DNA from: Candidatus Enterousia sp.
GTDB lineage: Bacteria; Pseudomonadota; Alphaproteobacteria; Rs-D84
Length of the DNA stretch: 64,000 nucleotides
Assembly: GCA_045593065.1 (NCBI GenBank)
Contig: JAZNVZ010000002.1
Span: 71,183 to 135,182, forward strand
Direction: 5' to 3'
The notes under the pieces were generated by a model. The model did no database searches, was not told where the DNA came from, and was given only the letters and a program-made list of their open reading frames with translations. Both the position numbers and the translations under genes were made by a program. Positions 4,693 through 61,762 of the stretch are shown in pieces (position 1 is the stretch's first letter; every line of letters starts with the position of its first letter).

Positions 4693-6144
4693 ATGTTAAA
4701 AAAAATCTGTGTATGTTTGGCTTTGTTAACATTTTCTGTGGATTGTTTTGCCGCGAATAAATCAACACAGCAAGAACCTGTGGAACATTTGACCGATGCG
4801 CAAATCTATCAAGAATTACAAAAATTGGCGTTGGTTTTTGAAACGGCGCGCGATAATTTTGTCGAAGAAGCAGACGAAAAGAAAATGTTAGAGGCCGCAA
4901 TGAACGGCATGTTGGCGGAATTAGACCCACATTCTTCGTATTTGAATACCGATGATTTCAAAGATTTTAATGATAAATCCCATGGCGAATTTGGCGGTTT
5001 GGGGATTCAAATCACGTCTGACCGTGGGGCGATTCGTGTTATTTCGCCGATTGATGATACCCCCGCGGCCAAGGCAGGAATCAAGGCCGGTGATTACATT
5101 ACCCGCATTGATGATGAACAAGTGTTTGATATGACATTGAATCAGGCCGTTAAAAAAATGAAAGGGCGCCCCGGCACCAAGGTTAAATTAACTATTGTAA
5201 ACGAAGACCACGAAACCAAAACATTGGTGTTGAAACGCGATATTATCAAGGTAAAATCTGTCAAATTCCGCGAAGTGCAACTGGCGGATGGCGATGAAGA
5301 TACACCACGGGTTGGGTATATTCGTATTTCTGATTTTGGGGCAACAACTGTCAAAGAATTAAATGATGCAATCAAAAAATTAGAAAAGGCCAAGGTCGTT
5401 GGCTATGTCTTGGATGTGCGTAATAACCCAGGCGGGTATTTGACTGCGGCGATTGGTGTGTCGGATGCGTTTTTGGACGATGGCGAAATTGTGTCCACGC
5501 GTGGCAAAGAAAAAACAGATGTTGACCGCAGTTTTGCAAAACCTGGGGATTTAACGAATGGCAAACCGATTGTTGTGTTGATAAACCATGGTTCTGCATC
5601 GGCATCCGAAATTGTTGCAGGCGCGTTGCAAGATAATGGTCGTGCGTTGGTGATGGGGTCGCAAAGTTTCGGCAAGGGCAGTGTGCAACAACAAAAACCG
5701 TTGGGTGATGGGACCGCTATTCATATCACTATTGCGCGTTATTATACCCCCAGTGGACGTTCCATTCAAAACGAGGGTATTACCCCTGATGTCCCTGTTT
5801 TGCAATCGCGTGTCAAGGTGTTGGAAAAACGCGATAGCGAATATTCCGAGGCATCATTCAAAAATTCTTTGAAAAATGAAGATGCAAAAAAGACCAAGAA
5901 ATCTAAAAAAGATTCCAAGGTTAGGGATGATGATGACGATGATGAAGATATTGATGATAAAGATTTGACCGATGAAGAAAAAGATGCGCGTGATTATCAA
6001 CTGCAACGCGGCGTTAGTATGGTTATTGCAATGACAAAAATGCAAATGACCGTGGATGACAGACGCGCCGTTGTTGATGCAGAAAACGCCGAAAAAGAAA
6101 AGGCCAAAGAAAAAGCCAAGGCCAAAGCAGAGAAAGAAAAATAG
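4693..6144 (+). CDS. ctpA: carboxy-terminal processing protease (S41 family, PDZ domain) with highly charged C-terminal tail
   Basis: Signal peptide; PDZ segment (GIKAGDYITRIDD); S41 catalytic region (HGSASASEIVAGALQD, KGSVQ); C-terminal 100 aa low-complexity acidic/lysine stretch (DDDDDDEDIDD...KEKAKEKAKAKAEKEK). Confidence 0.85.
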   Translation: MLKKICVCLALLTFSVDCFAANKSTQQEPVEHLTDAQIYQELQKLALVFETARDNFVEEADEKKMLEAAMNGMLAELDPHSSYLNTDDFKDFNDKSHGEFGGLGIQITSDRGAIRVISPIDDTPAAKAGIKAGDYITRIDDEQVFDMTLNQAVKKMKGRPGTKVKLTIVNEDHETKTLVLKRDIIKVKSVKFREVQLADGDEDTPRVGYIRISDFGATTVKELNDAIKKLEKAKVVGYVLDVRNNPGGYLTAAIGVSDAFLDDGEIVSTRGKEKTDVDRSFAKPGDLTNGKPIVVLINHGSASASEIVAGALQDNGRALVMGSQSFGKGSVQQQKPLGDGTAIHITIARYYTPSGRSIQNEGITPDVPVLQSRVKVLEKRDSEYSEASFKNSLKNEDAKKTKKSKKDSKVRDDDDDDEDIDDKDLTDEEKDARDYQLQRGVSMVIAMTKMQMTVDDRRAVVDAENAEKEKAKEKAKAKAEKEK

Positions 6145-6162
6145 TAAAAATATCATAAAATA

Positions 6163-6197
6163 ACAGGGACAAAAATTTGTCCCTGTTGTTTTTTTGT
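6163..6197. terminator. bidirectional rho-independent terminator between convergent ctpA and 6212 gene
   Basis: Hairpin cagggac-aaaaattt-gtccctg flanked by A-run and T-run. Confidence 0.6.
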
Positions 6198-6211
6198 TGG
6201 TTATTTATGTT

Positions 6212-7606
6212 TTATGGGTTGGTATATTCTTCGCCGCTGTCGTCATATACAGAATACACGGTGCCACCAACATTAATTTTCAGGTATTGGTCGACATTAT
6301 CACTCATTTTAATATTTGCAGTAGACATGTTGGCATAATAAATCGTATTACCAATCTGTACATTTAATGTGCGTGTGGTTTGTCTGTTTTGACGCAAATA
6401 AATTGTATTTGTGCCGATATGTAATTCATATCCGCAATCGTTGGCCTCGTCTGCGCCAAAACCGTGCCCAACCGTGGTTAATCCTGTTGGGCATTGTGTG
6501 CGGATGTCGCTGTTGTTTGCGGACCAATATCCCGGTCCCACAGCAACACATACGCCGTTGTTGCGATAATAGCCGCCACCACACATTGTTCCAGAATCTG
6601 GGACCCATGCAGCATAAAATGTTTTGGGGGTTGTGGTATAAATTGGAATTGTTTGGGACATGGCGCAATCCGTCAGTGCGGAATCTGTGCACCATCCGGC
6701 AAATGTATAGTTTTGCTTTGTCGGTGTGCCAGAAATCGTTGTTGCCTCGTCGTCCCAGAATGTTGTTGGTGCGCCTGTGTAATTTGTTCCGCCGTCTAAT
6801 ACATATGTAATTGCGTATTGGGTTGCACATGATACCTTGGAATTCCAGTATGATTCATACCCTGTTATATATTGACGATGATTGGTCCCAGTGCATGATG
6901 TATCCAAACCTGTATTGTAAAATATGCTGGACATCATGGATGTTCCATACGGGTGCCCGTTTTGAATTAGTCCCCCAAATGTGGATGGCGGAATAAATCC
7001 AGACAATGATGAACAATTATAAAAAGCTTGATAAAATGTATAGTTGTATGCATCTGTTATCCCACGGAATAAATTTTCGGGAATAGATGTTATTTTTTTG
7101 CAATTATAAAATGTTCTGTAAAATCGGGGGCGCAAAGCATCCGTGGTGCCCAATATTGGGAACACAGCAGACAAATCGCCACTGATTTCAGTAAAATAAT
7201 CTTTGTTCGTGTTAGACGGTCTAAAAGAAATTGCGGGGGTTGTTGTACCATTGTAATACCCCGTGGCCACACCCCCAATTCGTATCTTGTATTCCCCTGG
7301 TTGAGAATACTGGTGTGTGATTGAATCAAGTGTTGTATTGTTGCGTGGTTTTGTTTCTGCATCACTGTTGTCGCCCCAATCAATATAAAATGTGCCGATG
7401 GCAGAGATGGAGAATGATACAGAGGTGTTTTTTTTGGACGTTTCGGCAGTAATGGTGAATTTTACATCCACACAGGAATTGTCCGGCAGGGTGATTTGGT
7501 CGGTGGTACATGCGTTTGCGGTATTTATTGCACCAAATAACAGCGCCACGGCATACCCCGTACGCATTGCAAATAATTGAAGATTTGATATTGTCAAATT
7601 ACGCAT
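6212..7606 (-). CDS. secreted cysteine-containing repeat protein, paralog of the N-terminal region of the 1116-aa protein at 29456-32806 (BspA-like LRR-type FxxCxxL repeats)
   Basis: Signal peptide (MRTGYAVALLFGAINTANA-C); N-terminal 150 aa alignable with the 29456-32806 product (FTITAETSKK...GTFYIDWGDNS vs FTVTTTNMAAN...GTFYVDWGEGT); repeated FYNCxxLxxIP motifs. Confidence 0.6.
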   Translation of the reverse strand: MRNLTISNLQLFAMRTGYAVALLFGAINTANACTTDQITLPDNSCVDVKFTITAETSKKNTSVSFSISAIGTFYIDWGDNSDAETKPRNNTTLDSITHQYSQPGEYKIRIGGVATGYYNGTTTPAISFRPSNTNKDYFTEISGDLSAVFPILGTTDALRPRFYRTFYNCKKITSIPENLFRGITDAYNYTFYQAFYNCSSLSGFIPPSTFGGLIQNGHPYGTSMMSSIFYNTGLDTSCTGTNHRQYITGYESYWNSKVSCATQYAITYVLDGGTNYTGAPTTFWDDEATTISGTPTKQNYTFAGWCTDSALTDCAMSQTIPIYTTTPKTFYAAWVPDSGTMCGGGYYRNNGVCVAVGPGYWSANNSDIRTQCPTGLTTVGHGFGADEANDCGYELHIGTNTIYLRQNRQTTRTLNVQIGNTIYYANMSTANIKMSDNVDQYLKINVGGTVYSVYDDSGEEYTNP

Positions 7607-7699
7607 CAATATAAAACCATCCCCCCACGTTTGTTGCGCTAAATCCTGATACCAGAATTGTAAGAAGTTCTGGCATTAAAAGCAAGGAGTAAAAATAAA

Positions 7700-7726
7700 A
7701 TCGGCACAAGGCCGATTTGATTTTTA
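7700..7726 (-). terminator. terminator downstream of tRNA-Ser(GCT)
   Basis: Hairpin tcggc-acaag-gccga with a flanking T-run on the minus strand. Confidence 0.5.
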
Positions 7727-7816
7727 TGGCGGAGCGTGTAGGATTTGAACCTACGGACCGCGTTACCACGGTCACGGATTAGCAATCCGCTGCATTTACC
7801 CCTCTGCCAACGCTCC
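7727..7816 (-). tRNA. tRNA-Ser (anticodon GCT)
   Basis: Reverse complement folds as a cloverleaf: acceptor GGAGCGT/ACGCTCC, anticodon loop TTGCTAA, long variable arm, encoded CCA end. Confidence 0.85.
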
Positions 7817-7862
7817 GGATGGTTGATATTATATATTTTTTTTTAATAAACACAAGCCAAAA

Positions 7863-9656
7863 TTATTTTGTTTTTGTGCTGGATTTAAATTGCATGTCAT
7901 ACAGCGTTTTGTATGCACCGTTTTCATTTTGTAATAACTCTTCATGGGTACCTGATTCAACAATTACACCTTCGTTAATAACCAAGATTTTGTCCGCATT
8001 GCGAATTGTTGATAATCTGTGCGCAATCACAAATACGGTTTTGTCGCGCATCAGGTTTTCTATCGCTTTTTGAACCACGGCCTCGGCCTTGTTGTCCAGG
8101 GCAGATGTTGCCTCGTCTAACACCAAAATAGGGGCGTTTTTCAAAAATGCACGCGCAATCGCCACGCGTTGTTTTTGCCCGCCAGACAGCAATACACCGC
8201 GTTCCCCAATTTGTGCGTCCAGACCGCCAGGAATCGTTTTTAACACATCGTCCAAACATGCCATTTTTACCGCTTGGTCTAATTCTTCGTTGGTTGCATT
8301 TTCGTTGCCCAGCATAATGTTTTCGCGAATCGTGCCCGCAAACAAGAAATTATCTTGGAATACAACACCGATATTTGCGCGCAACGATTTTAATGTAATG
8401 TCGCGAATGTCCACACCATCAATGGTAATCGCCCCAGATGTTACATCGTAAAAGCGCGGTAATAAACTGACCACTGTGGATTTGCCACCGCCAGAATTGC
8501 CAACGAATGCGATGGTTTCGCCACGTTTAACACGGAAATTGACATTTTTTAATACAGGAACCCCTTGATTATATTCAAATGAAACATTTTTATATTCGAT
8601 TTCATGGATGTCTGGGTTCATGTTTTGGGCGTTTTTGTGGTCTTTGATTTTGGGTTCCATATCCAAAATTTCGAACACGCGTTCAATCGCCAAAAACGAC
8701 ATTAACACATTGTTGTATGTTCCGCCAATAGATTTAATCGGTGTGTACAACATGATTAATGCAGTCAAGAAAGACACAAAACTACCCGCTGTGATTGTGC
8801 CATTCAAAATCAAATATGAACCAAACCAAATCGCCAAACCAATACCAATGGATAAAATAACATGCATAACTGGGGTCAACCAACGGGTGCGTTGCAACAT
8901 TTTCATACGCAGTTTAAATACGCCGTGTAATACATTTTCAAATTTGCCTTGTTGGGTGCCGTCTAAATTATATGCGATGATTGTTTTGTTGCCATTATAT
9001 GTTTCGTTGTATGCAGTCAATAACGCAGAATCTGCCAAAATGGTTTTTGCCATAACATCGTTTATCTTTTTGCGAACCAGTGTCATTGGCAACATTGCAA
9101 ATATCATAATTGCAACGCACACCACCGCCAGTTGCCATGAATTATAAAACAGCACAAAAATCAACGATACAGCAGTAAAAAATTTTTGAACAAATGTTTT
9201 TAAATTGTTTAATAGCCCAGCACATGCCATATCTGCATTGTTATTAAACATAAAAATAACATCCCCAGAATTTTTCTTGCTGAAAAAATCTGTTTCAAAC
9301 ATCAGCATTTTTTTATACAAATCTAATTTCAACAGATTTGTGGTTTTTGCGCCAACCCATGTGTTCAAGTATTGCGCAATATAACGAAACACGCCCTGGA
9401 CAACAGTAAAACCGATAATCATTAACGGAATGTACCATGCGGTTTGCAGGTTTTTATCCACCATAACCACATCCATATACGGTTTTAATGACATGGCGAT
9501 AACCGCGTCCAACGACCCAACAGGAATTGCCACCAATATAGACAACAATCCACGGAACCAATATGGTTTCATATATGGCCACATGCGTTTGTAATTTTGT
9601 ACAAACATGTTGCGTAAAACTCTTTCGCGAATTTCTTTGCTCAGTTTTTTCCCCAT
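7863..9656 (-). CDS. msbA: ABC transporter permease/ATPase, MsbA-like lipid exporter
   Basis: Six-TM N-terminal domain plus C-terminal ABC ATPase (GNSGGGKST Walker A, LSGGQKQRVAIARA signature, LVLDEATSALD Walker B); 597 aa. Confidence 0.8.
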   Translation of the reverse strand: MGKKLSKEIRERVLRNMFVQNYKRMWPYMKPYWFRGLLSILVAIPVGSLDAVIAMSLKPYMDVVMVDKNLQTAWYIPLMIIGFTVVQGVFRYIAQYLNTWVGAKTTNLLKLDLYKKMLMFETDFFSKKNSGDVIFMFNNNADMACAGLLNNLKTFVQKFFTAVSLIFVLFYNSWQLAVVCVAIMIFAMLPMTLVRKKINDVMAKTILADSALLTAYNETYNGNKTIIAYNLDGTQQGKFENVLHGVFKLRMKMLQRTRWLTPVMHVILSIGIGLAIWFGSYLILNGTITAGSFVSFLTALIMLYTPIKSIGGTYNNVLMSFLAIERVFEILDMEPKIKDHKNAQNMNPDIHEIEYKNVSFEYNQGVPVLKNVNFRVKRGETIAFVGNSGGGKSTVVSLLPRFYDVTSGAITIDGVDIRDITLKSLRANIGVVFQDNFLFAGTIRENIMLGNENATNEELDQAVKMACLDDVLKTIPGGLDAQIGERGVLLSGGQKQRVAIARAFLKNAPILVLDEATSALDNKAEAVVQKAIENLMRDKTVFVIAHRLSTIRNADKILVINEGVIVESGTHEELLQNENGAYKTLYDMQFKSSTKTK

Positions 9657-9675
9657 GGTATTTTTGCCTTTGTTG

Positions 9676-11415
9676 TTATTCTGTTACAGGTTCTGGTTGA
9701 TAAATTTCGACATCGCGTGTCATGGCAATAAATTTTTCTGCGCGGCGCGCGGGCAATTCGTCCACTGGCACATCGCGCAAAGATTCCAATGCACCGACAA
9801 CAGAATTTGCAACTAATTCCATTGTTGTTTGCCAATCATTGTGTGCGCCACCTGTGGGTTCGGCAATAATGCCATCAATCACATTCAGGTTTGCCATGTC
9901 GCGCGCAGTTAATTTCATTGCGCTGGCGGCGGCGGCCTTGAATTTATTGTCGCGCCATAAAATGGATGCGCATGATTCAGGGGCAATCACAGAATAAATT
10001 GCGTTTTCCATCATTAAAACCTTGTCGCCAGTTCCAATCGCAATCGCGCCCCCAGAACCGCCTTGACCCACATTGACCGCAACATACGGTGTTTTGATAG
10101 CCAATCCTGTTGAAATTGCCGCGGCGACTGCCTGGGATTGACCGCGTTCTTCGCTTTCACGGCCAGCAAACGCCCCAGCAGTATCAAATAATGAAATCAC
10201 AGGTAGGTTAAAACGTTCGGCCAAACGCATCATACGGACGGCCTTGCGATAACCGTCAGGATTTGCCATACCAAAACGATGTTTTTGACGGGTTTCAATC
10301 GTACGACCAGATTCTTGGCCGATAATTACAGCCGGAATTCCGCGCCAAAAACCGATGCCACTGGCCATTGCGGGGTCTTCGGCATAACATCTGTCGCCGG
10401 CCAGGTATGTCCAATCGTCCACAATCCCGGCGATATAATCCAAGAAATGCGGTCTGTTTTCATGACGCGCCAACAATACTTTGTCATAAGCATCTGTTTC
10501 GCCCATGCCACGAATTTTTTTATCTTTGTCAAATTTTGGTGTTTGTACCTTGATAACCTTTGGGGTAATGGTTTGATGTGTTAATACGCGTAAAATGCGC
10601 GCAATGTTGTCGTGCAAATCTGCGCGCGCAGACACAATGTCGACCATACCGTGTTCGTATAAATAATCAGCGGTCTGGAAATTGCCAGGTAATTTTTCAC
10701 GAATGTTTTGTTCAATTACACGGCGTCCAGCAAACCCAATACGGGCGCCGGCCTCGGCAATATGGATGTCGCCCAACATGGCAAAAGACGCGGTTACGCC
10801 ACCAAATGTCGGGTCTGTTAAAACAACGATATATGGGATTTTTTTGTCGTGCAATTTGTTGACAGCCACGGTTGTGCGCGCCATTTGCATCAATGATAAA
10901 ATATTTTCTTGCATGCGTGCGCCACCACTGGATGTAACCATGACAAATGGTCGATTTAATTCAGCAGCGTGTTCCATCGCAGCAATAATTCCATCGCCAG
11001 CCACGCGCCCCATAGACCCCATCATGAAAAATCCGTTTAATACACAAATAGTAGAATCAATCCCGCCGATTTTTCCATCAGCCGCCACAACAGCATCCGG
11101 GTCCCCGGTATCTTCGCGGGCGGCGGCCAAGCGGTCTTGGTATGATTCGCGGTCAACGAATTCCAATGGGTCATCTGTGGATACAGGTAAATTTAATTTT
11201 TGCCAATTTGCATCATCGAATAATAAATTAAATCTTTGTTTTGGGGTCATAATAAACACATGACCACAACGCGGACATACATAATGATTATCCTTGTAAT
11301 CGCGATAATATACCAATTTTCCGCAAGATTCGCATTTAATCCACATCAATTTAGGAACGCGATCGTATCTTGTGCGTTCTTGGTTTTTTATGCCCGTTTT
11401 TGATTTGAAAAACAT
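9676..11415 (-). CDS. accDA: acetyl-CoA carboxylase carboxyltransferase, fused beta (AccD) and alpha (AccA) subunits
   Basis: N-terminus has the AccD Zn-ribbon (CESCGK...CPRCGH) and CT-beta domain; C-terminal half aligns to AccA from about residue 70 (RPHFLDYI...GQESGR...LPVISLFDTAGAF...GGSGGAIAIG); one continuous 579-aa ORF. Confidence 0.8.
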   Translation of the reverse strand: MFFKSKTGIKNQERTRYDRVPKLMWIKCESCGKLVYYRDYKDNHYVCPRCGHVFIMTPKQRFNLLFDDANWQKLNLPVSTDDPLEFVDRESYQDRLAAAREDTGDPDAVVAADGKIGGIDSTICVLNGFFMMGSMGRVAGDGIIAAMEHAAELNRPFVMVTSSGGARMQENILSLMQMARTTVAVNKLHDKKIPYIVVLTDPTFGGVTASFAMLGDIHIAEAGARIGFAGRRVIEQNIREKLPGNFQTADYLYEHGMVDIVSARADLHDNIARILRVLTHQTITPKVIKVQTPKFDKDKKIRGMGETDAYDKVLLARHENRPHFLDYIAGIVDDWTYLAGDRCYAEDPAMASGIGFWRGIPAVIIGQESGRTIETRQKHRFGMANPDGYRKAVRMMRLAERFNLPVISLFDTAGAFAGRESEERGQSQAVAAAISTGLAIKTPYVAVNVGQGGSGGAIAIGTGDKVLMMENAIYSVIAPESCASILWRDNKFKAAAASAMKLTARDMANLNVIDGIIAEPTGGAHNDWQTTMELVANSVVGALESLRDVPVDELPARRAEKFIAMTRDVEIYQPEPVTE

Positions 11416-18229: not shown

Positions 18230-18306
18230 GCGCCCATGGCTCAACTGGATAGAGCAACAGATTTCTAATCTGTGGGTTGCAGGTTCGAGTCCTGCTGGGC
18301 GCGCCA
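18230..18306 (+). tRNA. tRNA-Arg (anticodon TCT)
   Basis: GCGCCCATGGCTCAACTGGATAGAGC...anticodon loop TTTCTAA...GGTTCGAGTCC...GGGCGCGCCA; 77 nt. Confidence 0.85.
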
Positions 18307-18488
18307 TCCGTCTTTGCTAACGCAAATCCGCGATTAGCAATTTTTTTATTATGTGGAATTAGCAGGACGAGAACCGACCAAAGTTGCGTCAGCAACGACA
18401 GGTTCGACAACGAGTAGATTTTGCAAACAAAGTGCAGCAAAATCGTTAGGAATGCCCCACAGCCGGCACAATTTTGTGCCGAGCGAGG

Positions 18489-18508
18489 GAGTCCTGCTGG
18501 GCGCGCCA
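18489..18508 (+). repeat. 20 bp direct repeat of the tRNA-Arg 3' end (gagtcctgctgggcgcgcca), 182 bp downstream of the gene
   Basis: Exact copy of tRNA positions 18287-18306; att-like scar. Confidence 0.75.
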
Positions 18509-24952: not shown

Positions 24953-25043
24953 GGAGATGTGGCAGAGCTGGTTGAATGCGCGCGACTCGAAATCGCGTAT
25001 ACGGGCGACCGTATCGGGGGTTCGAACCCCTCCATCTCCGCCA
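24953..25043 (+). tRNA. tRNA-Ser (anticodon CGA)
   Basis: GGAGATGTGGCAGAGCTGGTTGAATGC...anticodon loop CTCGAAA...long variable arm...GGTTCGAACCCCTCCATCTCCGCCA; 91 nt. Confidence 0.85.
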
Positions 25044-25191
25044 GGAATAAAAAGGCACGCGATTTATTGCGTGTATTTTTATTCGTGTGATGTTTTGGGT
25101 TCGAACCAACGAGTGGGGGTTCGAACCGTAGCAAAAAGGCGGAATAACGCCGGTTTGCCCACAGGGCAAATTTTGCAAGGTGGCGAAGCAC

Positions 25192-25208
25192 CCCCTCCAT
25201 CTCCGCCA
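25192..25208 (+). repeat. 17 bp direct repeat of the tRNA-Ser(CGA) 3' end (cccctccatctccgcca), 149 bp downstream of the gene
   Basis: Exact copy of tRNA positions 25027-25043; the intervening 148 bp also contains T-arm-like fragments (gggttcgaacc x2). Confidence 0.7.
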
Positions 25209-49498: not shown

Positions 49499-49508
49499 TT
49501 TATAATGG

Positions 49509-49552
49509 CATATCTGCTGGTTGTTTGTTCGTTCATGTACCGTTTTGTACAC
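49509..49552. repeat. 44 bp direct repeat copy 1 (contains palindrome TGTAC-N6-GTACA)
   Basis: catatctgctggttgtttgttcgttcatgtaccgttttgtacac; second copy at 49606-49649 with one mismatch. Confidence 0.85.
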
Positions 49553-49605
49553 TACACTTACAAACAACGGCGCATCTATACCATTATAAACTATTGTTGT
49601 TGTTG

Positions 49606-49649
49606 CATATCTGCTTGTTGTTTGTTCGTTCATGTACCGTTTTGTACAC
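49606..49649. repeat. 44 bp direct repeat copy 2
   Basis: catatctgcttgttgtttgttcgttcatgtaccgttttgtacac. Confidence 0.85.
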
Positions 49650-49750
49650 CGCACTCGCGTTTATTTTTTTGTATTTATGGATAAAAATCATTTTTTTTAT
49701 GTCGTATTTTATGGTATAATCTTGGTATAACTAAATAAAGCGAGTAGAGA

Positions 49751-50782: not shown

Positions 50783-50859
50783 GCGAGCGTAGCTCAGTTG
50801 GCTAGAGCGCAACCTTGCCAAGGTTGAGGTCGAGGGTTCGAGCCCCTTTGCTCGCACCA
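50783..50859 (+). tRNA. tRNA-Gly (anticodon GCC)
   Basis: GCGAGCGTAGCTCAGTTGGCTAGAGC...anticodon loop TTGCCAA...GGTTCGAGCCC...TTTGCTCGCACCA; 77 nt. Confidence 0.85.
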
Positions 50860-50955
50860 AAGTTTTAAAACCGTCCGTTAGGGCGGTGTTTAATTTTGTC
50901 GGCAAAGGGGCGAGAATCTCGCCGTAGTGAAACGCAGGCGGATTGCGAGGCGAGG
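50843..50955 (+). repeat. 113 bp direct repeat, left copy (tRNA-Gly 3' end plus 96 bp)
   Basis: 112 of 113 identical to 54245-54357; a further 18 bp copy of the tRNA 3' end lies at 50976-50993. Confidence 0.9.
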
Positions 50956-51200
50956 TTATGAAATAACCGAAGTACTTTGCTCGCACCAAAGTTAAAATGT
51001 TAGAAATCCGGGCATTTGCACCGGATTTTTTGTTTTATATCGCAAATTACCGGTGCGGATAATGTTTTGAATTTTCAACATTTTTTGCTTTGCATACAAA
51101 AAACGCAGAAATCCGCCGTTTTTTGATAATTTACTATATCGGGGAAATAGTTTCTATCCAAATATGATGCAAAAAGTGCCCATAAGGGCACTATTTTTAA

Positions 51201-52124
51201 TTAAATTAAATCCGAATATGGCAAAGACTTGATATATTTTTCCATATAAACCCAGTCAGGTTCACCTTTATTATCGACAGGTAGTTTTATTTGATGCAAC
51301 ACAAAATCTTTTTGACGATATTGTCGTCCATATGCATACCTATACTTATCCATACTTATAACGGATGCTATAAATAATTTTATAAATTTGTTCAATGGCG
51401 TTTTTTCTTTTAACACTAAAATATTATCATCACAAGCAAAATCATATGACCTATAAAAACAATTACAAAACATATCAATCGTTATTGAGTTGTTGTATAT
51501 TTTCATTTCTGGATTTGATATATAATCAGATATACCCTCGTTTGATGCACCAGCCGTTGCCAATGGTATTTTACCAGGAATTCTGTTTTCTTTTGTTAAA
51601 CGCACTCCACGAGCAACACCGAACAAATCGGACAACTTAAAATGTTTCCATTTTGTCGTATCAAATTGTGATTCTTTGCGTTTTATTTTTGTACCAATTG
51701 AGCTGTAATCAATTTTGTATTTTTTTAACCAATCCGGCAATGGCGGCAAATTGATGTTTTTCAACGTTTTGTTCGCCTGACGGCCATAACTATAACGATA
51801 CGCATTCATTTTTATGACATGGCAATAAAACAATTTTTCTTCCAATGACATTTCTTTTTTAGGTATAAGCAAATATAAATCACGTCCACTGTAAAAAGGC
51901 TTATCTTGAACAAAGGTTGATAAAACACTGCCACCGCCAGCACACGTAAGTATTCCTGCCGGTTGTGGTTCTTTCCCAGAAATGCGTTTTACCCTTGCTA
52001 CAACACCATTGTTTTCAGCCGTTCTGGCAACAAAATTTATTGCATCTGCATCATCGGACTGTTCCAGAGCATCAAGTTCTAGATTTATTCCATATTTAAT
52101 ATCAAATAATTCAGATACTAACAT
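51201..52124 (-). CDS. restriction-modification specificity subunit (two tandem target-recognition domains; BcgIB-like)
   Basis: Internal two-fold repeat (SELFDIKYG...YRYSYGRQANK vs LSDLFGVARG...YRYAYGRQYRQ); directly downstream of and co-oriented with the MTase-ENase gene. Confidence 0.65.
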   Translation of the reverse strand: MLVSELFDIKYGINLELDALEQSDDADAINFVARTAENNGVVARVKRISGKEPQPAGILTCAGGGSVLSTFVQDKPFYSGRDLYLLIPKKEMSLEEKLFYCHVIKMNAYRYSYGRQANKTLKNINLPPLPDWLKKYKIDYSSIGTKIKRKESQFDTTKWKHFKLSDLFGVARGVRLTKENRIPGKIPLATAGASNEGISDYISNPEMKIYNNSITIDMFCNCFYRSYDFACDDNILVLKEKTPLNKFIKLFIASVISMDKYRYAYGRQYRQKDFVLHQIKLPVDNKGEPDWVYMEKYIKSLPYSDLI

Positions 52125-52126
52125 TG

Positions 52127-53989
52127 TTATTTACTCGTTTTTATCAGGTATGCCAGATAATTTTTTACCGTCTGTTCAAAATCAGATTGTTTCAAATTTG
52201 AATAATCGGTTTCCATATACGCTTCACATAACCACTCATCATTCCATTTAACAGGTTTTTTGGCGGTCAACCCATCTTTGACATCCAAATTTTCATATAA
52301 ATCCAGCCACTCTTTTTTGATTTTTTCCCAACGATTGAATTTATCAATGCGTCCAAGTTTTTTTGCTTTCACAAAACCATCATTTTTATAATATCCAAAG
52401 AACGTTTGTTTTGTTGAATCATGCGGTTTATGTGCTGTCCAAACCATGACACATACGTTGGTGTTGGCATTGTTTGAATAAAATATATCATCCGGCATTG
52501 AAAACACCGCTTTTAATGTATGGTGTTTGAACAATTTTTCACGTTCTGTTTTAAATTTGGTTCCGATTGCACAAGACATAGGCACAACCACAACCCCAGT
52601 TCCGCCAGGTTCTAATAAATCCAACATATTTTGAACAAAAGCCAGTTCAGTATGGTCTTTTTGTGAATACGGTGGGTTAATCAGACCAACATTTAAATGT
52701 TTTTCTTTTAACCATTTAACAATATCTGCACTAAAACAGTCGCCATATTTTATATTTGATTTACCATCACCACGAACAATCATATTTGCAATAGCCAATG
52801 TATAAATATCGTCATTAAATTCTACACCATATAAATGATTGCGTTTTATGTCGTCTATCTCATTGTCATTCGCGCCTTTGAACATTTTTGACATTGCCGA
52901 CACCAAAAACGCCCCAGACCCACAGCAAATGTCGACAACTTTACTATTTTTATTTACACCGGCCAAATCACACATAAATTCTGTCAAATGTTGCGGTGTT
53001 AAAACTATTCCTAATCCTTTACCATCACCGCCACTATATTTTACAAATTCATGATAAAATATTCCAAGTGCATCAATTGCACTATCTGCATAATCCATCA
53101 TTGGTTTAATTTTTCTATCCAATTCGGATATATACCATAATAAAGAATTATCTTCATTCAATGGAATGTCTTTAATTTTTCCGTCTTTTCCTATTTTTTC
53201 AAAATGCTTTTTTATGTCGCTAATCTTATCTTGTCTGATATCGCTGTTATCTAAAACGGTTATGATTGCATCTTTTAACAAACTCATTAAAGACCTAAAA
53301 GAATTCTGGTTTTGATAATTATTTACAAAATCATCATCTTTTAATGCGATTAAAATTCCGGCAATAAAGACGGGTTTATCTTTTTCCGTAATTTTTAAAA
53401 TACGTAAATTATCATGCATAACAAGTGCCAACTTACGAATTTCATCAATCGACACTTTTTTGCTAACTTTTTCACCTTTAACCATACGTAAATAATTTTC
53501 CGGGGCATATAAAACATCTTTACCTTTGCTTAATTCTTGTGGTTTTTCTTGACCTTTGCGCCAATCAAAAGCGCTAACCTTGTAATTATCCGATGATGTT
53601 CCAGATACAGCAATCGCAATCACATTAAAATAATCTTTGATAAATTTTGCATAATACAACGCACCGTCCACCGCAAACGCTTCCGGTTGATTCCAATTTT
53701 CTGATTCATGCTTTTTTAACGATGCTTTACATTCAACAACGATAACCGTATCACGTGCTTTGTCAAATGTTATCACAAATTCCGGTTTACCAATTCCTTT
53801 GCCACCACAATCATATTGATTCAAATCACAAATCTTTGGTTTGCCACCGGCACGTTCCAATGCTTCACGTAAATCACCGTTAATTTTTGATGCATCAGAT
53901 TGTGGATAAACAACACCCCATGAATTTTTACCGAGTGCAAAATCCATCTCTTTTTGTGTTAAATCCTCGGTTAAACGTTCACTTGCCAT
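52127..53989 (-). CDS. Type IIB/IIG-like restriction-modification protein: N-terminal PD-(D/E)xK nuclease fused to gamma-class N6-adenine DNA methyltransferase (BcgIA-like)
   Basis: Nuclease motif FDKARDTVIVVECK; MTase motif X GIVLTPQHL, motif I DICCGSGAFL, motif IV NPPY (GLINPPYSQ); 620 aa. Confidence 0.78.
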   Translation of the reverse strand: MASERLTEDLTQKEMDFALGKNSWGVVYPQSDASKINGDLREALERAGGKPKICDLNQYDCGGKGIGKPEFVITFDKARDTVIVVECKASLKKHESENWNQPEAFAVDGALYYAKFIKDYFNVIAIAVSGTSSDNYKVSAFDWRKGQEKPQELSKGKDVLYAPENYLRMVKGEKVSKKVSIDEIRKLALVMHDNLRILKITEKDKPVFIAGILIALKDDDFVNNYQNQNSFRSLMSLLKDAIITVLDNSDIRQDKISDIKKHFEKIGKDGKIKDIPLNEDNSLLWYISELDRKIKPMMDYADSAIDALGIFYHEFVKYSGGDGKGLGIVLTPQHLTEFMCDLAGVNKNSKVVDICCGSGAFLVSAMSKMFKGANDNEIDDIKRNHLYGVEFNDDIYTLAIANMIVRGDGKSNIKYGDCFSADIVKWLKEKHLNVGLINPPYSQKDHTELAFVQNMLDLLEPGGTGVVVVPMSCAIGTKFKTEREKLFKHHTLKAVFSMPDDIFYSNNANTNVCVMVWTAHKPHDSTKQTFFGYYKNDGFVKAKKLGRIDKFNRWEKIKKEWLDLYENLDVKDGLTAKKPVKWNDEWLCEAYMETDYSNLKQSDFEQTVKNYLAYLIKTSK

Positions 53990-54244
53990 AAATCTTTCCT
54001 TCCTTTACGCAATAATTATAGAAGTTTTTTTACAATCACCACAATAAAAAAATCATTCTCTCGGTATCTATTATACCACAAAAAATAATCGCAAATAACA
54101 AAAACGTAAAAAAATCGTTTGCTTTTACCAAAAAACACGATAAACCCAAAGGGTGTTAGGCAAAGCGTCAGGCAAACTGATAAAAAAGCAGGTAAAAAGC
54201 GGTCAAAAGGGTTAAAAAATTGGCTAAAAATGGTCAAATGCGTT

Positions 54245-54357
54245 CCCCTTTGCTCGCACCAAAGTTTTAAAACCGTCCGTTAGGGCGGTTTTTAATTTTG
54301 TCGGCAAAGGGGCGAGAATCTCGCCGTAGTGAAACGCAGGCGGATTGCGAGGCGAGG
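54245..54357 (+). repeat. 113 bp direct repeat, right copy
   Basis: cccctttgctcgcaccaaagttttaaaaccgtccgttagggcgg...gcgaggcgagg. Confidence 0.9.
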
Positions 54358-54432
54358 CGACATATAGCCATCGAAGTACTTGACAAAATGAAATAATGCA
54401 CTATAATTGTCTTTGTCAATAAACCAAGGGAG

Positions 54433-54927
54433 ATGATTGTGGCACACAAAGATGTAAAATTAACAAAAACACAAAGTCAATACCTGGCGCAATACAAGTA
54501 TGATATCAGTAATGCCGTGATTGATAAATTTGGTGGTTCTTATCAAAATTACGAAACATTATGCAAGACATGGCGTCAACAAATGGATTACAGACCAGAA
54601 ATTGAAGAATTTATTTTATCTAATAATAACATTATATTGGTAAAGGCCTTGCCAGATTATGCTATGCGTGATTTGAATTGTATGTATGGTTTGTGCAACG
54701 GTATTGCCGAATATTTATCAAAATACATGATTAAAAAATCTGCGGGATTGACCAGGGCGACTGTCCAAAATGAAATTGTGAACAGAATATTTTTTAATTC
54801 GCCTGTATTTATAAAACATTTCCAGGCAAGATATAAAAAACCTTTGGATTTAGATAACGCGGGTTGGGTTAATGCAAATCCTGGGGTTGTCGCGATGGCA
54901 AACGCATTAAAAGCAAAACAATATTAA
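54433..54927 (+). CDS. hypothetical protein (164 aa)
   Basis: AAGGGAG SD, clean ORF, hairpin terminator at 54948-54977; no family recognised. Confidence 0.5.
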   Translation: MIVAHKDVKLTKTQSQYLAQYKYDISNAVIDKFGGSYQNYETLCKTWRQQMDYRPEIEEFILSNNNIILVKALPDYAMRDLNCMYGLCNGIAEYLSKYMIKKSAGLTRATVQNEIVNRIFFNSPVFIKHFQARYKKPLDLDNAGWVNANPGVVAMANALKAKQY

Positions 54928-54947
54928 ATAATTTAATGCGTTGTGAT

Positions 54948-54977
54948 TAAACCGCATCGTTTGATGCGGTTTTTTGT
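54948..54977 (+). terminator. rho-independent terminator
   Basis: accgcatc-gtttg-atgcggt followed by T6. Confidence 0.65.
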
Positions 54978-55046
54978 CAATATTTAATTTGTTGAAATTG
55001 TTATACTATATTGACTATAATTCAGCGTGGCCAAATAGGAGTTGTC

Positions 55047-56156
55047 ATGACGCAAATATTATCAGGTGTATATTTGGATTATTCTGATGTTTTAATTCGT
55101 CCAAAAATGGGAATAAATCTTAACTCTCGCAAAGATGTCGAATTACAAAGGTTGTTTAAATTTAAACATGGTCAAACGCGAACAGGATTGGGAATATTTA
55201 ATGCCAATATGGCAACCGTTGGTAATTTTACAATCGCAAAAAAATTACTGGCGCGCGGCATGTTTGCCACATTGCACAAACATTATACAGTGGATGAAAT
55301 AGGGGAATTTATTAAATCTGCGCGTGCGGACAATGTGCCGTTGGACAATTTGTTTATTACCATCGGGCTGAAAAACATAGATGACGAAATTGCAAAATTA
55401 AAAGATTTAGAATCAAAATATGGTTGGATAGCACCGCGTAATATCTGCATGGATGCACCAAATTTCTATATCCAGAAAGCATTAGATGCGTTAAAGCGTG
55501 TGCGCACGGAATTTCCGGATTCTGTTATTATGGCGGGCAATATTGCCAGTGGCGATATTTGTTTGAAGCTGTTGGACTATGCCGACATTATCAAATGTGG
55601 CATTGGCAGTGGGTCTGCGTGTCTAACGCGTCGCCAGACAGGTTGCGGAACGCCGATGGTGTCGCTGATATTAGAATGTGCGGATATTGCGCATTCTGTG
55701 GGCGGTCATATTTGTGCAGATGGCGGAATTGTTGATGTCGGCGATATTTGCAAGGCATTTTGTTTGAATGCGGATTTTGTTATGGCGGGCGGCATATTTG
55801 CTGGCACTGACGAGGCCGAAGGCGAACGCCAAGAAAAACATTATCAAACAAATGAAATCATTGATGGCGCGCCGGTTGTGAAAACCAAATATTTCAAGGC
55901 ATATTACGGCATGTCGTCTGAATATGCGAATAATAAATTTGCAGGCGGAATGGGAAATTATAAAACCAGTGAAGGACGCGAATTGTTGATACCATACACT
56001 GGCGCGGTTGATAAAATTTTGCAGGATATCACGGGCGGAATCGCATCTTGTTGCACATATATTGGCGCGGCATCTGTGAAACACATGGCAAAATGCGCAA
56101 CGATAATACAGGTACACAATCAATTAAACAAGGTGTTTGAAAAATATTCTGTATAA
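55047..56156 (+). CDS. guaC: GMP reductase (IMPDH/GMPR family, no CBS insert)
   Basis: Near-collinear with the GuaC pattern (YSDVLIRPK...SRKDVELQRLFKFKHG...ANMATVGNF...CGIGSGSACLTRRQTGCGTP...ADGG...YYGMSSE); AGGAG SD. Confidence 0.85.
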   Translation: MTQILSGVYLDYSDVLIRPKMGINLNSRKDVELQRLFKFKHGQTRTGLGIFNANMATVGNFTIAKKLLARGMFATLHKHYTVDEIGEFIKSARADNVPLDNLFITIGLKNIDDEIAKLKDLESKYGWIAPRNICMDAPNFYIQKALDALKRVRTEFPDSVIMAGNIASGDICLKLLDYADIIKCGIGSGSACLTRRQTGCGTPMVSLILECADIAHSVGGHICADGGIVDVGDICKAFCLNADFVMAGGIFAGTDEAEGERQEKHYQTNEIIDGAPVVKTKYFKAYYGMSSEYANNKFAGGMGNYKTSEGRELLIPYTGAVDKILQDITGGIASCCTYIGAASVKHMAKCATIIQVHNQLNKVFEKYSV

Positions 56157-56197
56157 TATATTGTCGTATAATTCAATCTAAGTAAAGGAAATCGTAC

Positions 56198-57586
56198 ATG
56201 TTAATTCAAGAAAATGTGTTATCCCGAACCCAACAACATGATGCAGAAAATTTGGCAGCCATAGACAACGCAGTGCACGCAGGGCGTATAAATGAAGAGG
56301 CCGCCGATTATATGCGCGTCATGTATTCAAATGGCATGGATTGGTTTCGCGAGGTCTTTCATTTTCTGGGCAAATGTTTGGGCGCCCCAAAGGCCGCGGT
56401 TGTGCCATACGACCGAGAACATAATACTGGCATAAATATCAAAATGAAAATCGCGGACATTAACCCACTGGAAACATATTTGGTGCAACATCGTCTGGAT
56501 GCAGACCCAATGAGAAACCAGTTCTTTACATCGCCAGAAAAATGTCAAATCGATTTGTCTGTATCGTCTATTGTAACGGTAATTGTCGCGGCACAAAAAA
56601 GCGTGGACAGGGCGTTGGATAAAATCACAGGCAAATATTATATGCAATATTTAGAATCTGTGTTGGATGTTGTGAAAAATATTTTAGAACCACATTGTGA
56701 TAATCAGTCGATTAAGACATTGGAACGCGATATCCGGGAACAATTTGCCGCGCAATATATAACCAATGCTGCCGAGGTTGTATTGCGATTAATCGATACA
56801 GCAGATAAAAATGTAATTGTGAATTTGGTGCGCGCATTGGATAAAATTCGCAAACCATATACTCGTCTCAGCGATGTGTGGCGCATTAAATGTTTGTTCG
56901 ATTTAATCCCCCAGGCGCGTACTTTTATTGAAAGAATGCAAGAATTGATGCCTGACAGAATTTTGGAAATTCGTGATAAATTTTATGATATCAAAAATCC
57001 GCGTAATTACAGGGACGCAAAAATAATTATCAATATTGGCAAAGATGGCGCGGTGGTGCCCATGGAAATTATTTGCCAGGTGCGTAAATTTTTCGAAGCA
57101 GAAATTAAAACTCATAATAACTATGAAACAATCCGTTTAACCGAAGCATGCCGTGATGCCAGCAAAGAACAAGAATCATCTAACTATATGGAACACGGCG
57201 TTCAGCAATATAATTTGATGATTGTGGAATGTTTGGACGATTTGTTTGAACGGGTGGGGTGGAACATTTTGTATTCGCACGACCATAATGTATCTATGTT
57301 CGAAGGTTTTCCAAAAGATTGCAAATTGTATTATCCGCAATATGTTATGGATTCTATTCGTGGAAAATTGTTGTTGGCGGTGGAAAATGAAATATTTCAT
57401 ATTAACCAGGTGCCTGTAAAGTTAACCAAAGAACAAGAAAGCCGAATATTTTTATTTATGGCGCATTTTATATTGGTTGCGGCAATGCCTTATGTCAAGG
57501 CAGATTGGAAAGTTTCTGCGGATACTATGGCGGGTAAATTATTTAATTTTGTAATGAAAGAAGTTCAACGTTATTACAAAAAATAA
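56198..57586 (+). CDS. hypothetical protein (462 aa); weak resemblance to nucleotidyltransferase / RelA-SpoT-like synthetase motifs
   Basis: AAGGAA SD; segment YRDAKIIINIG...VPMEIICQVRKFFEAEIKTH loosely resembles the RSH YxxxHxxV / EIQIRT / AExxH pattern; not conclusive. Confidence 0.45.
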   Translation: MLIQENVLSRTQQHDAENLAAIDNAVHAGRINEEAADYMRVMYSNGMDWFREVFHFLGKCLGAPKAAVVPYDREHNTGINIKMKIADINPLETYLVQHRLDADPMRNQFFTSPEKCQIDLSVSSIVTVIVAAQKSVDRALDKITGKYYMQYLESVLDVVKNILEPHCDNQSIKTLERDIREQFAAQYITNAAEVVLRLIDTADKNVIVNLVRALDKIRKPYTRLSDVWRIKCLFDLIPQARTFIERMQELMPDRILEIRDKFYDIKNPRNYRDAKIIINIGKDGAVVPMEIICQVRKFFEAEIKTHNNYETIRLTEACRDASKEQESSNYMEHGVQQYNLMIVECLDDLFERVGWNILYSHDHNVSMFEGFPKDCKLYYPQYVMDSIRGKLLLAVENEIFHINQVPVKLTKEQESRIFLFMAHFILVAAMPYVKADWKVSADTMAGKLFNFVMKEVQRYYKK

Positions 57587-60123: not shown

Positions 60124-61044
60124 TTAATTTTCAGGGTCGATGGCGCGGGGGTGCGCGTGGGCATAAATGTCGTTTATTTCCGCCATATTTACGCGCGTAT
60201 ATAATTGGGTTGTAGAAAGTGATGCGTGCCCCAATAATTCTTGTAAACTGCGCAAATCTGCGCCGCCGGACAGCAATGCGGTTGCAAATGTATGGCGCAG
60301 GGCGTGTGGTGTTACATAATCAGGTAATTGCAAATATGCGCGTAACTTTTCAACCGTTTTTTCCGCCATTCGTGCCGACATGGGCAATCCACGGACACTG
60401 CGAAACAATGGTTTTGTTGCATCGCCCATATATGGACATATGTCTAAATATTTTGCAATCGCATCATTGACCGCGGGTAACACCGGAACGATTCTTTCTT
60501 TGTTGCCTTTGCCAATTATGCGCAAAGTGTCAGGTCGATTTTGCATGTCGCATACGCGCAGTGATAATGCCTCGGAAATACGTAAACCACACCCAAAAAG
60601 TAATGTTATTAACGCCCAGTCGCGTGCGGCAATCCACGGATGGTTTTCGTCAATAGCACGGACGGCTGATTGCATATCTTGAACCTGGGTTGTTTCGATT
60701 GCTTTGGATAATTTGCGTGGAACTTTTGGGGACGAGATTAGGGCGATTGCCTCGTTTTTTATATCGTATTTTCGTGCAATAAATTTATAAAATCCGCGCA
60801 CAGATGACAATGCCCGTGCGGTGGATTTGTGTTCCATATTTCTGCGTGCGCGGTCAGCCAACCATGCCCGAAAACAAATCGTGTCAATACGACCTAAATC
60901 ATTTGGCAATAGTTCTGCGTTTGCCCAACGCACATAAAACGACAAGAAATCGCGAATATCTGTTTCATACGCTGTGGCGGTATGCGTGGAATATTGTTTG
61001 GTATTCAGTAAATAATCTATAAAATTGGCGATAATTTCGTTCAT
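60124..61044 (-). CDS. xerC: tyrosine recombinase XerC/XerD family
   Basis: N-terminal core-binding domain; catalytic R...HxxR...Y region (HALRHTFATALL...LGHASLSTTQLYTRV); start taken at ATG MNEIIANFIDYL. Confidence 0.82.
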   Translation of the reverse strand: MNEIIANFIDYLLNTKQYSTHTATAYETDIRDFLSFYVRWANAELLPNDLGRIDTICFRAWLADRARRNMEHKSTARALSSVRGFYKFIARKYDIKNEAIALISSPKVPRKLSKAIETTQVQDMQSAVRAIDENHPWIAARDWALITLLFGCGLRISEALSLRVCDMQNRPDTLRIIGKGNKERIVPVLPAVNDAIAKYLDICPYMGDATKPLFRSVRGLPMSARMAEKTVEKLRAYLQLPDYVTPHALRHTFATALLSGGADLRSLQELLGHASLSTTQLYTRVNMAEINDIYAHAHPRAIDPEN

Positions 61045-61045
61045 T

Positions 61046-61762
61046 TTACCTGATTTCAAATGTTGCAGACACTTGGACTTTGACATCGGTATCTTTGGAT
61101 GTTAATGTGCCAAATGCGCCGGCATCCATTGCCTCGGCAGTGGCCTTGGCGGCCATTAATCTATAATTTGCCGTTGGGTGCATGTCGTATGTGGCGTTTC
61201 CATAAGATACAGATAACAGTTTACCGATTGTACGGTCATCCCCACTAACCAACGCGGTTGCGCGTTCTTTGGCGTTGCGGACGGCATCGCCCAAACATTT
61301 TTCCATTATGGGTTGTAATGTTTCGCGACTGCTAAACATTTGCAAATTTCCAACATAAATATTTTCTTGACCAGCAAATTGATTTAGCACGGTTTCAATG
61401 GTGTCCATGTTCGCGGCAGAAACCTCGACAGCGATGGTGGTTTCGGTGCCCAAATTTACAGATTTTTGGGTTTGGTGGTTCCATTCGCTTTTTTCATAAG
61501 AATTAAATTCTGTTGTTTGAGATTTTACATCCAAAGTTGACAAAAACTCGTTGATTTCAGCAATCTTTTTTGTTGCGGCACGCATTGATGTTAATGCGTT
61601 TTTGTCCAATGTCGTAACCCGTAAAGTGATGGCGGTACGGTCGCGTGGCGCGGTTGTTAAACATTCGCCATTTGTGGACACGGTTCGGGTGGTTTCTGGG
61701 TAAAAATATGCGTAACCCACGACCGCTAAAATTGCGCCTAAAATCCAAGTTGCTATTTTCAT
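61046..61762 (-). CDS. SIMPL domain (DUF541, YggE-like) periplasmic protein
   Basis: Signal peptide MKIATWILGAILAVVGYA; SIMPL-like pattern of alternating beta/alpha regions; 238 aa. Confidence 0.7.
   Translation of the reverse strand: MKIATWILGAILAVVGYAYFYPETTRTVSTNGECLTTAPRDRTAITLRVTTLDKNALTSMRAATKKIAEINEFLSTLDVKSQTTEFNSYEKSEWNHQTQKSVNLGTETTIAVEVSAANMDTIETVLNQFAGQENIYVGNLQMFSSRETLQPIMEKCLGDAVRNAKERATALVSGDDRTIGKLLSVSYGNATYDMHPTANYRLMAAKATAEAMDAGAFGTLTSKDTDVKVQVSATFEIR

Follow-up and report, generated by a model that had tools for sequence, protein, structure and literature searches.

A BcgI-architecture restriction-modification system carried on an apparently decayed island at a tRNA-associated hotspot of Candidatus Enterousia

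Type IIB restriction-modification (RM) enzymes carry an N-terminal PD-D/EXK domain followed by a distal gamma-class methyltransferase, and in BcgI, CspCI, and BsaXI a separate two-domain specificity (S) subunit completes the enzyme in a 2RM:1S arrangement (PMC4081073, PMC3592470). Glu53 of the PD...EXK motif of BcgI is essential (PMC3592470). RM units found with direct repeats have been sorted into three classes: site-specific recombination, long target duplication, and chance insertion between repeats (PMC2853133). The locus analyzed here brings these themes together: a decayed island at a hotspot next to a tRNA houses an RM system of BcgI architecture, and both are of kinds already known. 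It lies beside a tRNA-Gly(GCC) gene in a 64,000-nt stretch of DNA (the window) from Candidatus Enterousia sp. (assembly GCA_045593065.1, contig JAZNVZ010000002.1, positions 71,183 to 135,182 of the forward strand), and all coordinates below are those of the window unless a locus is named.

Comparison with the described systems showed several likenesses. First, the two proteins are like BcgI and BsaXI/CspCI (PMC3592470, PMC4081073, PMC11997821) in that a nuclease and a gamma-class methyltransferase share one chain, a separate HsdS-like subunit has two recognition domains, the genes are adjacent, and a motor subunit is absent. Second, the surrounding DNA is like tRNA 3′-end genomic islands in its low-GC cargo, a tRNA 3′-end repeat at both ends with a regenerated tRNA, a conserved arm at one end, variable defense cargo, and several core copies in a row. 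However, it differs from the usual tRNA islands in having no integrase and in probably sitting at a secondary core ∼130 nt downstream of the tRNA rather than in the gene, and the recombinase seen in its relatives, tentatively linked to the island, is a small serine recombinase (Resolvase) rather than a tyrosine integrase. Third, the RM-only insert, the long direct repeat, and the lack of a mobility gene recall the cases of Furuta, Abe and Kobayashi 2010, and the locus combines the first and third of the PMC2853133 classes, with a tRNA core as its site and an insertion between pre-existing repeats.

The explanation proposed for the locus is as follows. In this clade, tRNA-Gly(GCC) would be followed by one or two tandem units, each made of a tRNA 3′-end copy, a terminator, a spacer, a hairpin, and GAAGTA. 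A 3.27-kb island (50994 to 54266, with one repeat copy counted) would have entered between the second and third copies of a short core (c2 and c3), leaving a 19-nt flanking repeat (CTTTGCTCGCACCAAAGTT) and pushing the host units apart into what appears to be a 113-bp repeat. The island would be one of a family whose hallmark is a conserved right end with an exact junction to the core, and whose other members carry different cargo. Having no recombinase, the window island would be a stranded remnant, presumably dependent for any movement now on recombination between the repeats or on functions supplied in trans. Its cargo would be an intact, independently mobile 2.8-kb cassette for a BcgI/BsaXI-style RM enzyme. 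By analogy with BcgI, two RM chains would bind one S subunit with two target recognition domains (TRDs), and the complex would recognize a bipartite site, with adenine methylation in both half-sites and cleavage at fixed positions when the DNA is unmodified. This explanation as a whole, an island at c2 between split host units that has decayed and carries a mobile BcgI-style RM cassette, is given a probability of about 60%.

The 113-bp repeat beside tRNA-Gly

The elements of the tRNA-Gly site are as follows.

50783-50859, plus strand: tRNA-Gly(GCC) (ARAGORN; Rfam tRNA, 65.9 bits)
50843-50859, plus strand: core copy c1, the last 17 nt of tRNA-Gly
50843-50955, plus strand: left 113-nt copy, comprising c1, terminator T1 (50870-50887), and spacer block A (GGCAAAGGGGCGAG...TTGCGAGGCGAGG)
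50860-50974, plus strand: unit U1, a host-type tRNA-downstream unit (T1, block A, hairpin, GAAGTA)
50954-50968, plus strand: U1 hairpin GGTTAT-GAA-ATAACC, covarying
50975-50993, plus strand: core copy c2 (CTTTGCTCGCACCAAAGTT), inferred to form the left junction of the island; it also ends U1 in cargo-free relatives
54245-54357, plus strand: right 113-nt copy, comprising core c3, terminator T1 (54269-54292), and block A
54248-54266, plus strand: core copy c3, a 19-nt repeat identical to c2 at 19/19 positions
54267-54379, plus strand: unit U2′, again of host type, with a degenerate hairpin (∼54356-54373, L085-like) and CGAAGTA
54380-54407, plus strand: consensus promoter TTGACA-16-TATAAT of a conserved 164-aa gene (p164, 54433-54927)

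The neighboring PBP1A gene retrieved Candidatus Enterousia and related uncultured gut and rumen alphaproteobacteria at 82 to 83% identity, and the order PBP, outer-membrane protein (OMP), tRNA-Gly, variable segment, p164, and GMP reductase is kept in these relatives (their loci are designated by L numbers). With positions 50994 to 54266 removed, the window aligned end to end with two cargo-free loci, L087 and L091, through the tRNA, both units, and the p164 promoter (TTGACA/TATAAT). A further relative, L095, has the layout tRNA, unit, c2, island, right end, c3, unit, promoter; its two units have different terminators, and only the short core is repeated around its island. Given the cargo-free relatives with tandem units and the L095 layout, the attachment (att) site of the island is not the best interpretation of the 113-bp repeat. 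The simplest reading of the L095 layout and the empty-site alignment would be a host-borne duplication with the island at c2. As judged from these alignments, the 113-bp repeat is most likely a host duplication of the tRNA tail and spacer that was split by the insertion.

The first-pass annotation of this DNA had described an island integrated at tRNA-Gly and bounded by the 113-bp repeats, and had named relatives with the same sequence twice and no cargo as one observation that would speak against it. Such relatives were found, at the species level: L087, L088, L089, L091, and L092 contain tandem units of tRNA end, terminator, and spacer without cargo, and the repeat as att site is not supported. 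Insertion at the locus is supported, and the left junction is likely to be c2. The order of the L087-type unit is CTTTGCTCGCACCA, AAGTT, terminator, GGCAAAGGGGCGAG...TTGCGAGGCGAGG, hairpin, and CCGAAGTA; its second copy is truncated and has neither the hairpin nor CCGAAGTA. Homologues of U1 follow tRNA-Gly in L006, L007, L008, L085, L087, and L095. The variable segment itself ranges widely: between tRNA-Gly and p164, L048 has only a terminator, with no unit and no cargo, L085 has a 214-aa gene, L095 has a 0.9-kb insert, and L008 has a 6.3-kb island. The RM insert was absent from the homologous locus in L048, L087-L092, L009, and L085.

Within the window, ARAGORN and a repeat search confirmed the tRNA-Gly(GCC) and the direct repeat, as first annotated: the 113-nt copies (50843-50955 and 54245-54357) are identical at 112/113 positions (99%), and pairwise alignment placed the sole mismatch at 50888 (G) versus 54290 (T). 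A 55-nt piece of the repeat occurs at 2 places in the window compared to 0 expected from shuffles. The 19-nt core CTTTGCTCGCACCAAAGTT, which consists of 14 nt of the tRNA 3′ end and 5 nt beyond, starts at 50846, 50975, and 54248, that is, 3 copies compared to 0.01 expected from shuffles. The middle one of these had been annotated as an 18-bp copy at 50976; its presence was borne out, but it is 19 nt long and spans 50975-50993. Beyond the 113 nt, the long copies diverge over 15 to 20 nt and then share CGAAGTACTT (50969-50978 and 54372-54381), and the true repeated unit is therefore ∼135 nt. The tRNA-Gly is intact, with the tRNA 3′-end repeat at both island ends (c2 and c3), and in the locus comparison its 77-nt sequence was unchanged in L006-L009, L048, L087, L094, and L095. 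On the other side, the right 113-nt copy starts with CCCC, exactly as in the tRNA, and U2′ leads directly into the p164 promoter, a native flank that is collinear with the cargo-free relatives.

The annotated model holds that one island, extending over the whole interval between the 113-bp repeats with the short third copy inside it, integrated into tRNA-Gly itself; its attP would have had 113 bp in common with the target, and attL and attR would be the two repeats. In formal terms the final structure fits this model, which would also account for the CCCC at the start of the right repeat and for L094, where an island of the same family is flanked by a 64-nt repeat (core plus its own terminator) and has no internal core. 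Long att segments of this order occur elsewhere; for instance, att identity segments of ∼100 bp are known for some tRNA-integrating elements (SLP1). Long att repeats at tRNAs were also noted by Furuta et al. (PMC2853133). However, the cargo-free relatives already have the tandem units, and in L095, which is arranged in the same way, no more than the core is repeated. In addition, an attP arm 99% identical to the species-specific terminator and spacer of the host would need prior residence in the same species, and the internal c2 is left without a role. An att origin of the 113-bp repeat is therefore regarded as unlikely, although it retains some plausibility.

RM DNA might instead have inserted downstream of the tRNA independently of an integrase, duplicating a target of ∼113 bp, as described for RM units by Kobayashi's group. 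The RM-only cargo, the lack of a mobility gene, and a flanking repeat longer than 30 bp agree with the operational criteria of PMC2853133, and in L094, L008, and the window, the left-hand core is followed on its right by a copy of the host's own post-tRNA spacer. Under this mechanism the empty site should hold one copy, yet cargo-free relatives already hold two, which sets the locus apart from the long-target-duplication class. No single-copy empty site was found in the relatives, which have either the tandem unit (L087 group) or none (L048). Moreover, a precise right junction and a right end kept across different cargo point to a site-specific element, and overlap of the repeat with a tRNA 3′ end is taken in PMC2853133 as a sign of site-specific recombination. 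Long target duplication is thus quite improbable here. The wider lesson of a host duplication split by an island is that when long direct repeats enclose cargo next to a tRNA, they cannot be assumed to be its att site.

One more feature of the repeat was observed. The start of block A (50902-50916) is an imperfect inverted copy of the T-arm and acceptor 3′ strand of the tRNA (50837-50851; GGCAAAGGGGCGAGAA versus TTCGAGCCCCTTTGC). This inverted copy is kept in relatives, with 16/19 nt in L006, L007, and L087.

The RM cassette and its two proteins

The cargo comprises the following features.

51201-52124, minus strand: specificity subunit S, 307 aa, two TRDs
52127-53989, minus strand: RM fusion protein, 620 aa
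51216-54044, minus strand: mobile RM cassette, the DNA common to other genomes (blastn)

The two co-oriented genes reported in the first-pass annotation were confirmed, both on the minus strand. They are intact and 2 nt apart, with S downstream of RM, and the motifs VIVVECK, GIVLTPQ, DICCGSGAFL, and NPPY are all present in the 620-aa protein. Its layout is an N-terminal PD-(D/E)xK-type nuclease, a helical linker, and a gamma-class N6-adenine methyltransferase; the nuclease residues are P69 E70 ... E86 C87 K88, motif I lies at 353-362, and NPPY lies at 438-441. The Pfam family N6_Mtase covers residues 305-612 (7.5e-31), and the PADLOC profile REase_MTase_IIG matches the full-length protein (1.4e-101), with a further match of 1e-76 to a 637-position profile; these matches start at residue 63. 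The S protein matches Pfam Methylase_S in two stretches (3.5e-17) and the PADLOC Specificity_II profiles PDLC03594 (1.4e-42) and PDLC03591 (6.6e-29); the latter match spans residues 2-299 and positions 11-325 of a 341-position profile. When 40 homologues of the RM protein (61 to 88% identity) were aligned, P69, E70, E86, C87, K88, motif I, and NPPY were invariant. Among open reading frames, only these two genes were found between the repeats, with no HsdR/Res motor and no separate methyltransferase.

The AlphaFold2 model was confident for RM residues 1-170 (pLDDT of 85 to 96). In this part, PE opens a strand at 71-75 and ECK closes a strand at 81-88, followed by a helix at 106-117 and a strand at 122-132. 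The predicted N-terminal fold is the classical PD-(D/E)xK layout, with a putative catalytic role. The methyltransferase half was modeled poorly (pLDDT of 30 to 60), global TM-scores were therefore low, and only the alignment extent and the N-terminal domain were used from the model. The best Foldseek matches were HsdM proteins, and the full chain was collinear with RM.BsaXI (type IIB), BpuSI, and DrdV. In an HMMER search of Protein Data Bank sequences, StySJI M scored 1.8e-14 and RM.BsaXI 3.3e-5. The likeness to the type I core (HsdM2-HsdS) is seen in RM residues 300-560, which best match HsdM (StySJI M, EcoKI M), and in the match of the S subunit to Methylase_S. Unlike type I systems, however, this one has no HsdR, and its methyltransferase has the nuclease fused at its N terminus. 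The chain also differs in length from its BsaXI counterpart, which has 916 aa compared to 620 aa here.

Every feature of a BcgI/BsaXI-type RM plus S architecture that can be tested in sequence was present, and this assignment, already made in the first-pass annotation, is supported by Pfam, PADLOC, the invariant motifs, and the fold search. Two-sided (type IIB) cleavage by RM and S would follow by analogy with BcgI. The system is intact and probably active. The RM family is large, with 4,739 matches at E ≤ 0.001 among 8,000 scored candidates, and full-length relatives at 35 to 40% identity occur on plasmids of many phyla, where they are annotated just as "N-6 DNA methylase." The locus adds a BcgI-architecture enzyme from an uncultured gut alphaproteobacterium to a family with more than 4,700 database relatives, most of which have only that name.

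The DNA shared with other genomes is 2.8 kb and consists of the two genes and ∼50 to 100 nt of promoter. Its closest copies are 97% identical over 51216-54032 and lie in a defense island with AAA_15, AbiU2, and DUF4268 (L001-L003). Copies at 91% are found behind tRNA-Pro, in L004 adjoining a 501-aa tyrosine integrase and in L097-99 at the same tRNA-Pro site without an integrase. An extreme example was found in L005 (GCA_017475605.1, 10001-14198), where a copy at 82% lies between rpsK and rpoA of the ribosomal protein operon. The TRD-coding segments differ between the window cassette and those in L004, L005, and L097-99. No inverted or direct repeats were found at the cassette boundaries that would explain its movement. 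The 2.8-kb RM cassette appears to hop among all of these settings, from islands and tRNA sites to an operon of ribosomal proteins. In the L005 insert, the S gene looks truncated and two genes of no assigned kind are also present.

These copies bear on a further explanation, that the RM genes are ancestral to the host and that the repeats are due to chance or to a local duplication unrelated to mobility. The duplication of the tRNA-tail unit is indeed host-borne and independent of cargo, in agreement with the second part of that explanation. However, no relative has the RM genes at this locus, copies 91 to 97% identical lie in unrelated contexts, and the island end is common to islands with other cargo. 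The GC content between the repeats is also 8 points lower than that of the window (0.334 versus 0.411). With the cassette found elsewhere, synteny kept without RM, and tandem units present without cargo, ancestral host genes are effectively refuted.

Island ends and recombinase

The island contains two further features.

50994-51200: left arm of the island, with a terminator-like hairpin (∼51005-51032) and a bidirectional S-gene terminator (51175-51192)
54110-54244, plus strand: conserved right end (RE), with phased GGTNAAAAA motifs, ending in ...GGTCAAATGCGTT and directly joined to the core

The left arm had no match in any fetched locus. The RE (∼92 to 135 nt), on the other side, recurs with other cargo in L008, L093, L094, and L095, and its junction is always ...AAATGCGTT|CCCCTTTGCT, at the tRNA-Gly core. 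It is 93% identical to L093 and L094 over 54153-54244 and 80% identical to L008 13185-13335. The cargo of these RE islands is diverse. In the L093 island (4826-9743), putative defense genes, so named from a reading of the sequences and not from a profile library, encode an HsdR-like protein of 829 aa, an M-S fusion of 807 aa, a protein like C5 methyltransferases, and a PLD-like nuclease; the L094 island has a 288-aa gene, and the L008 island has glycosyltransferases. A scan of viral contigs for the RE-core junction gave no match, and L096, one of four metagenome matches of the junction, was rejected as a chance match.

The first-pass annotation had found no integrase inside and had considered the island decayed or mobilized in trans, or else kept by tRNA 3′-end targeting. 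No recombinase or integrase gene was found in 50994-54244, and the island does look decayed. No serine recombinase is encoded in the 64-kb window either; the only tyrosine recombinase, an Xer-like protein (60124-61086), lies 6 kb away and is the sole candidate in the window for an enzyme acting in trans. In related islands, a 191-aa Resolvase-domain gene (small serine recombinase) ends 16 nt before the RE in L008, and an N-terminal remnant of the same gene lies 1.1 kb upstream of the RE in L094.

With no recombinase in the island or nearby, current entry and exit might occur by RecA-type, Campbell-like recombination through the 113-nt repeat, with a 3.4-kb circle carrying one repeat copy that, in genomes of this species, could integrate at any site where the unit is present and would need no site-specific enzyme. 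The repeat, 113 nt with 112/113 positions identical, is sufficient for homologous recombination, and near-identity across 3.3 kb suggests ongoing exchange or conversion. This route, however, leaves unexplained the first arrival, the RE-core junction shared across species, and the 19-nt c2/c3 junction, and no circular form or polymorphism was observed. As the present means of movement it is considered very unlikely, and it would complement rather than exclude insertion of a site-specific island at c2.

Several points weigh against an island at c2 that split a host duplication and carries a BcgI-style cassette. First, the L094 island, with its 64-nt repeat of core and own terminator and no internal core, means that long host-matched repeats can also arise in another way; unequal exchange between cores, gene conversion, and long target duplication could all yield them. 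Second, the 113-nt copies are 99% identical, yet their hairpins differ completely, so that gene conversion or a mosaic origin is needed. Third, the L008 recombinase is without a C-terminal helix-turn-helix, and intact homologues in L020, L087, and L009 adjoin neither the RE nor the tRNA core; the serine recombinase is a weak lead as the integrase of the island. Fourth, exact-protein look-ups of the OMP, p164, and the 462-aa protein encoded farther downstream (p462) found no genome of the same species, and the closest genome, L085, has 84 to 87% DNA identity, so the empty site is read from other species. Finally, as regards the enzyme, BsaXI is distant in sequence (E of 3.3e-5, in the methyltransferase part only), the likeness to BcgI is drawn from its published description and from profiles, and a type IIG enzyme that cuts on one side and has a separate S would look the same as type IIB in sequence alone.

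A different junction motif was noted during the comparison. Directly after secondary tRNA-tail copies, CCCTTCGC...GCTTCGGGTGGCA or TCCGTCTTCGC occurs at L006 13107-13132, L097 ∼283-320, and L008 13336-13360, that is, behind tRNA-Gly and tRNA-Pro copies in different genomes. This motif may be the left end of another island family.

tRNA-tail units in the clade and neighboring features

Copies of tRNA tails are not confined to tRNA-Gly. Of the 50 tRNAs in the window and the retrieved loci for which 250 nt or more of downstream sequence was present, 12 had their own last 13 to 17 nt repeated within the next 400 nt. These were tRNAs for Gly, Arg, Ser, Lys, His, Pro, and Ala (L022, L032, L035, L038, L097, and the window are among the loci). 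In the window, tRNA-Arg(TCT) has an exact copy of its last 17 nt at 18492-18508, 202 nt downstream (18230-18508 for tRNA and unit together), and tRNA-Ser(CGA) has one at 25192-25208, 165 nt downstream (24953-25208 for tRNA and unit together), both with no cargo; the structured Arg and Ser units resemble the tRNA-Gly unit in style. When the units downstream of the Gly, Arg, Ser, Lys, His, and Pro tRNAs were aligned, leaving aside the Ala unit, common sequence blocks emerged. These blocks are a terminator followed by TTTTAATTTTG, GACGAGAACC, AGGTTCGAC..GAGTA, and CGAAG.A directly before the copy. The units thus resemble a repeat family that is spread through the clade and tied to tRNA 3′ ends.

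The hairpin of the Gly unit (50954-50968) was compared with its homologues in L006, L007, L008, L085, L087, and L095. In the alignment of 8 sequences, compensatory changes affected 4/6 pairs, 95.8% of cells were paired, and 0/500 shuffles reached the score. The stem varies between species as GGTTAT/ATAACC, GGCGGC/GCCGCC, GGCAAC/GTTGCC, and GGTGGC/GCCACC. No known RNA family was found by Rfam in the repeat units, whether the region or the whole window was searched. Two candidate identities were rejected: a CRISPR-like repeat-spacer or homing guide, because the hairpin-to-copy distance varies from 6 to ∼33 nt and cas or Tn7-like genes are absent, and a pseudo-tRNA or minihelix, because neither ARAGORN nor Rfam made a call and there was no convincing cloverleaf.

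The tRNA-tail units may have a function, or they may be what is left of islands of a single family after erosion. A more specific and doubtful proposal is that they form a family of conserved structured elements in Candidatus Enterousia-like genomes, not mere scars, acting as decoy landing pads or miniature elements. If so, decoy pads would let islands and defense cassettes accumulate while the tRNA stays untouched; alternatively, the units would be miniature nonautonomous elements that copy the tail of each tRNA. Such recurrent units may merit study as integration hotspots in reduced genomes.

The neighbors of the 3.3-kb island are the genes for the OMP, the 164-aa protein, and a GMP reductase-like protein. 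Downstream, in a conserved trio at 54433-57586, the genes for the 164-aa and 462-aa proteins flank the GMP reductase-like gene (55011-56156), which scored below the NCBIfam cutoff. The 164-aa and 462-aa proteins had no Pfam, NCBIfam, or PADLOC match. The GC content is low (0.33 to 0.37) over 54250-55500. Finally, the intergenic DNA that separates the PBP1A and OMP genes contains a 51-nt direct repeat (49508-49558 and 49605-49655) with 94% identity and a spacing of 97 nt.

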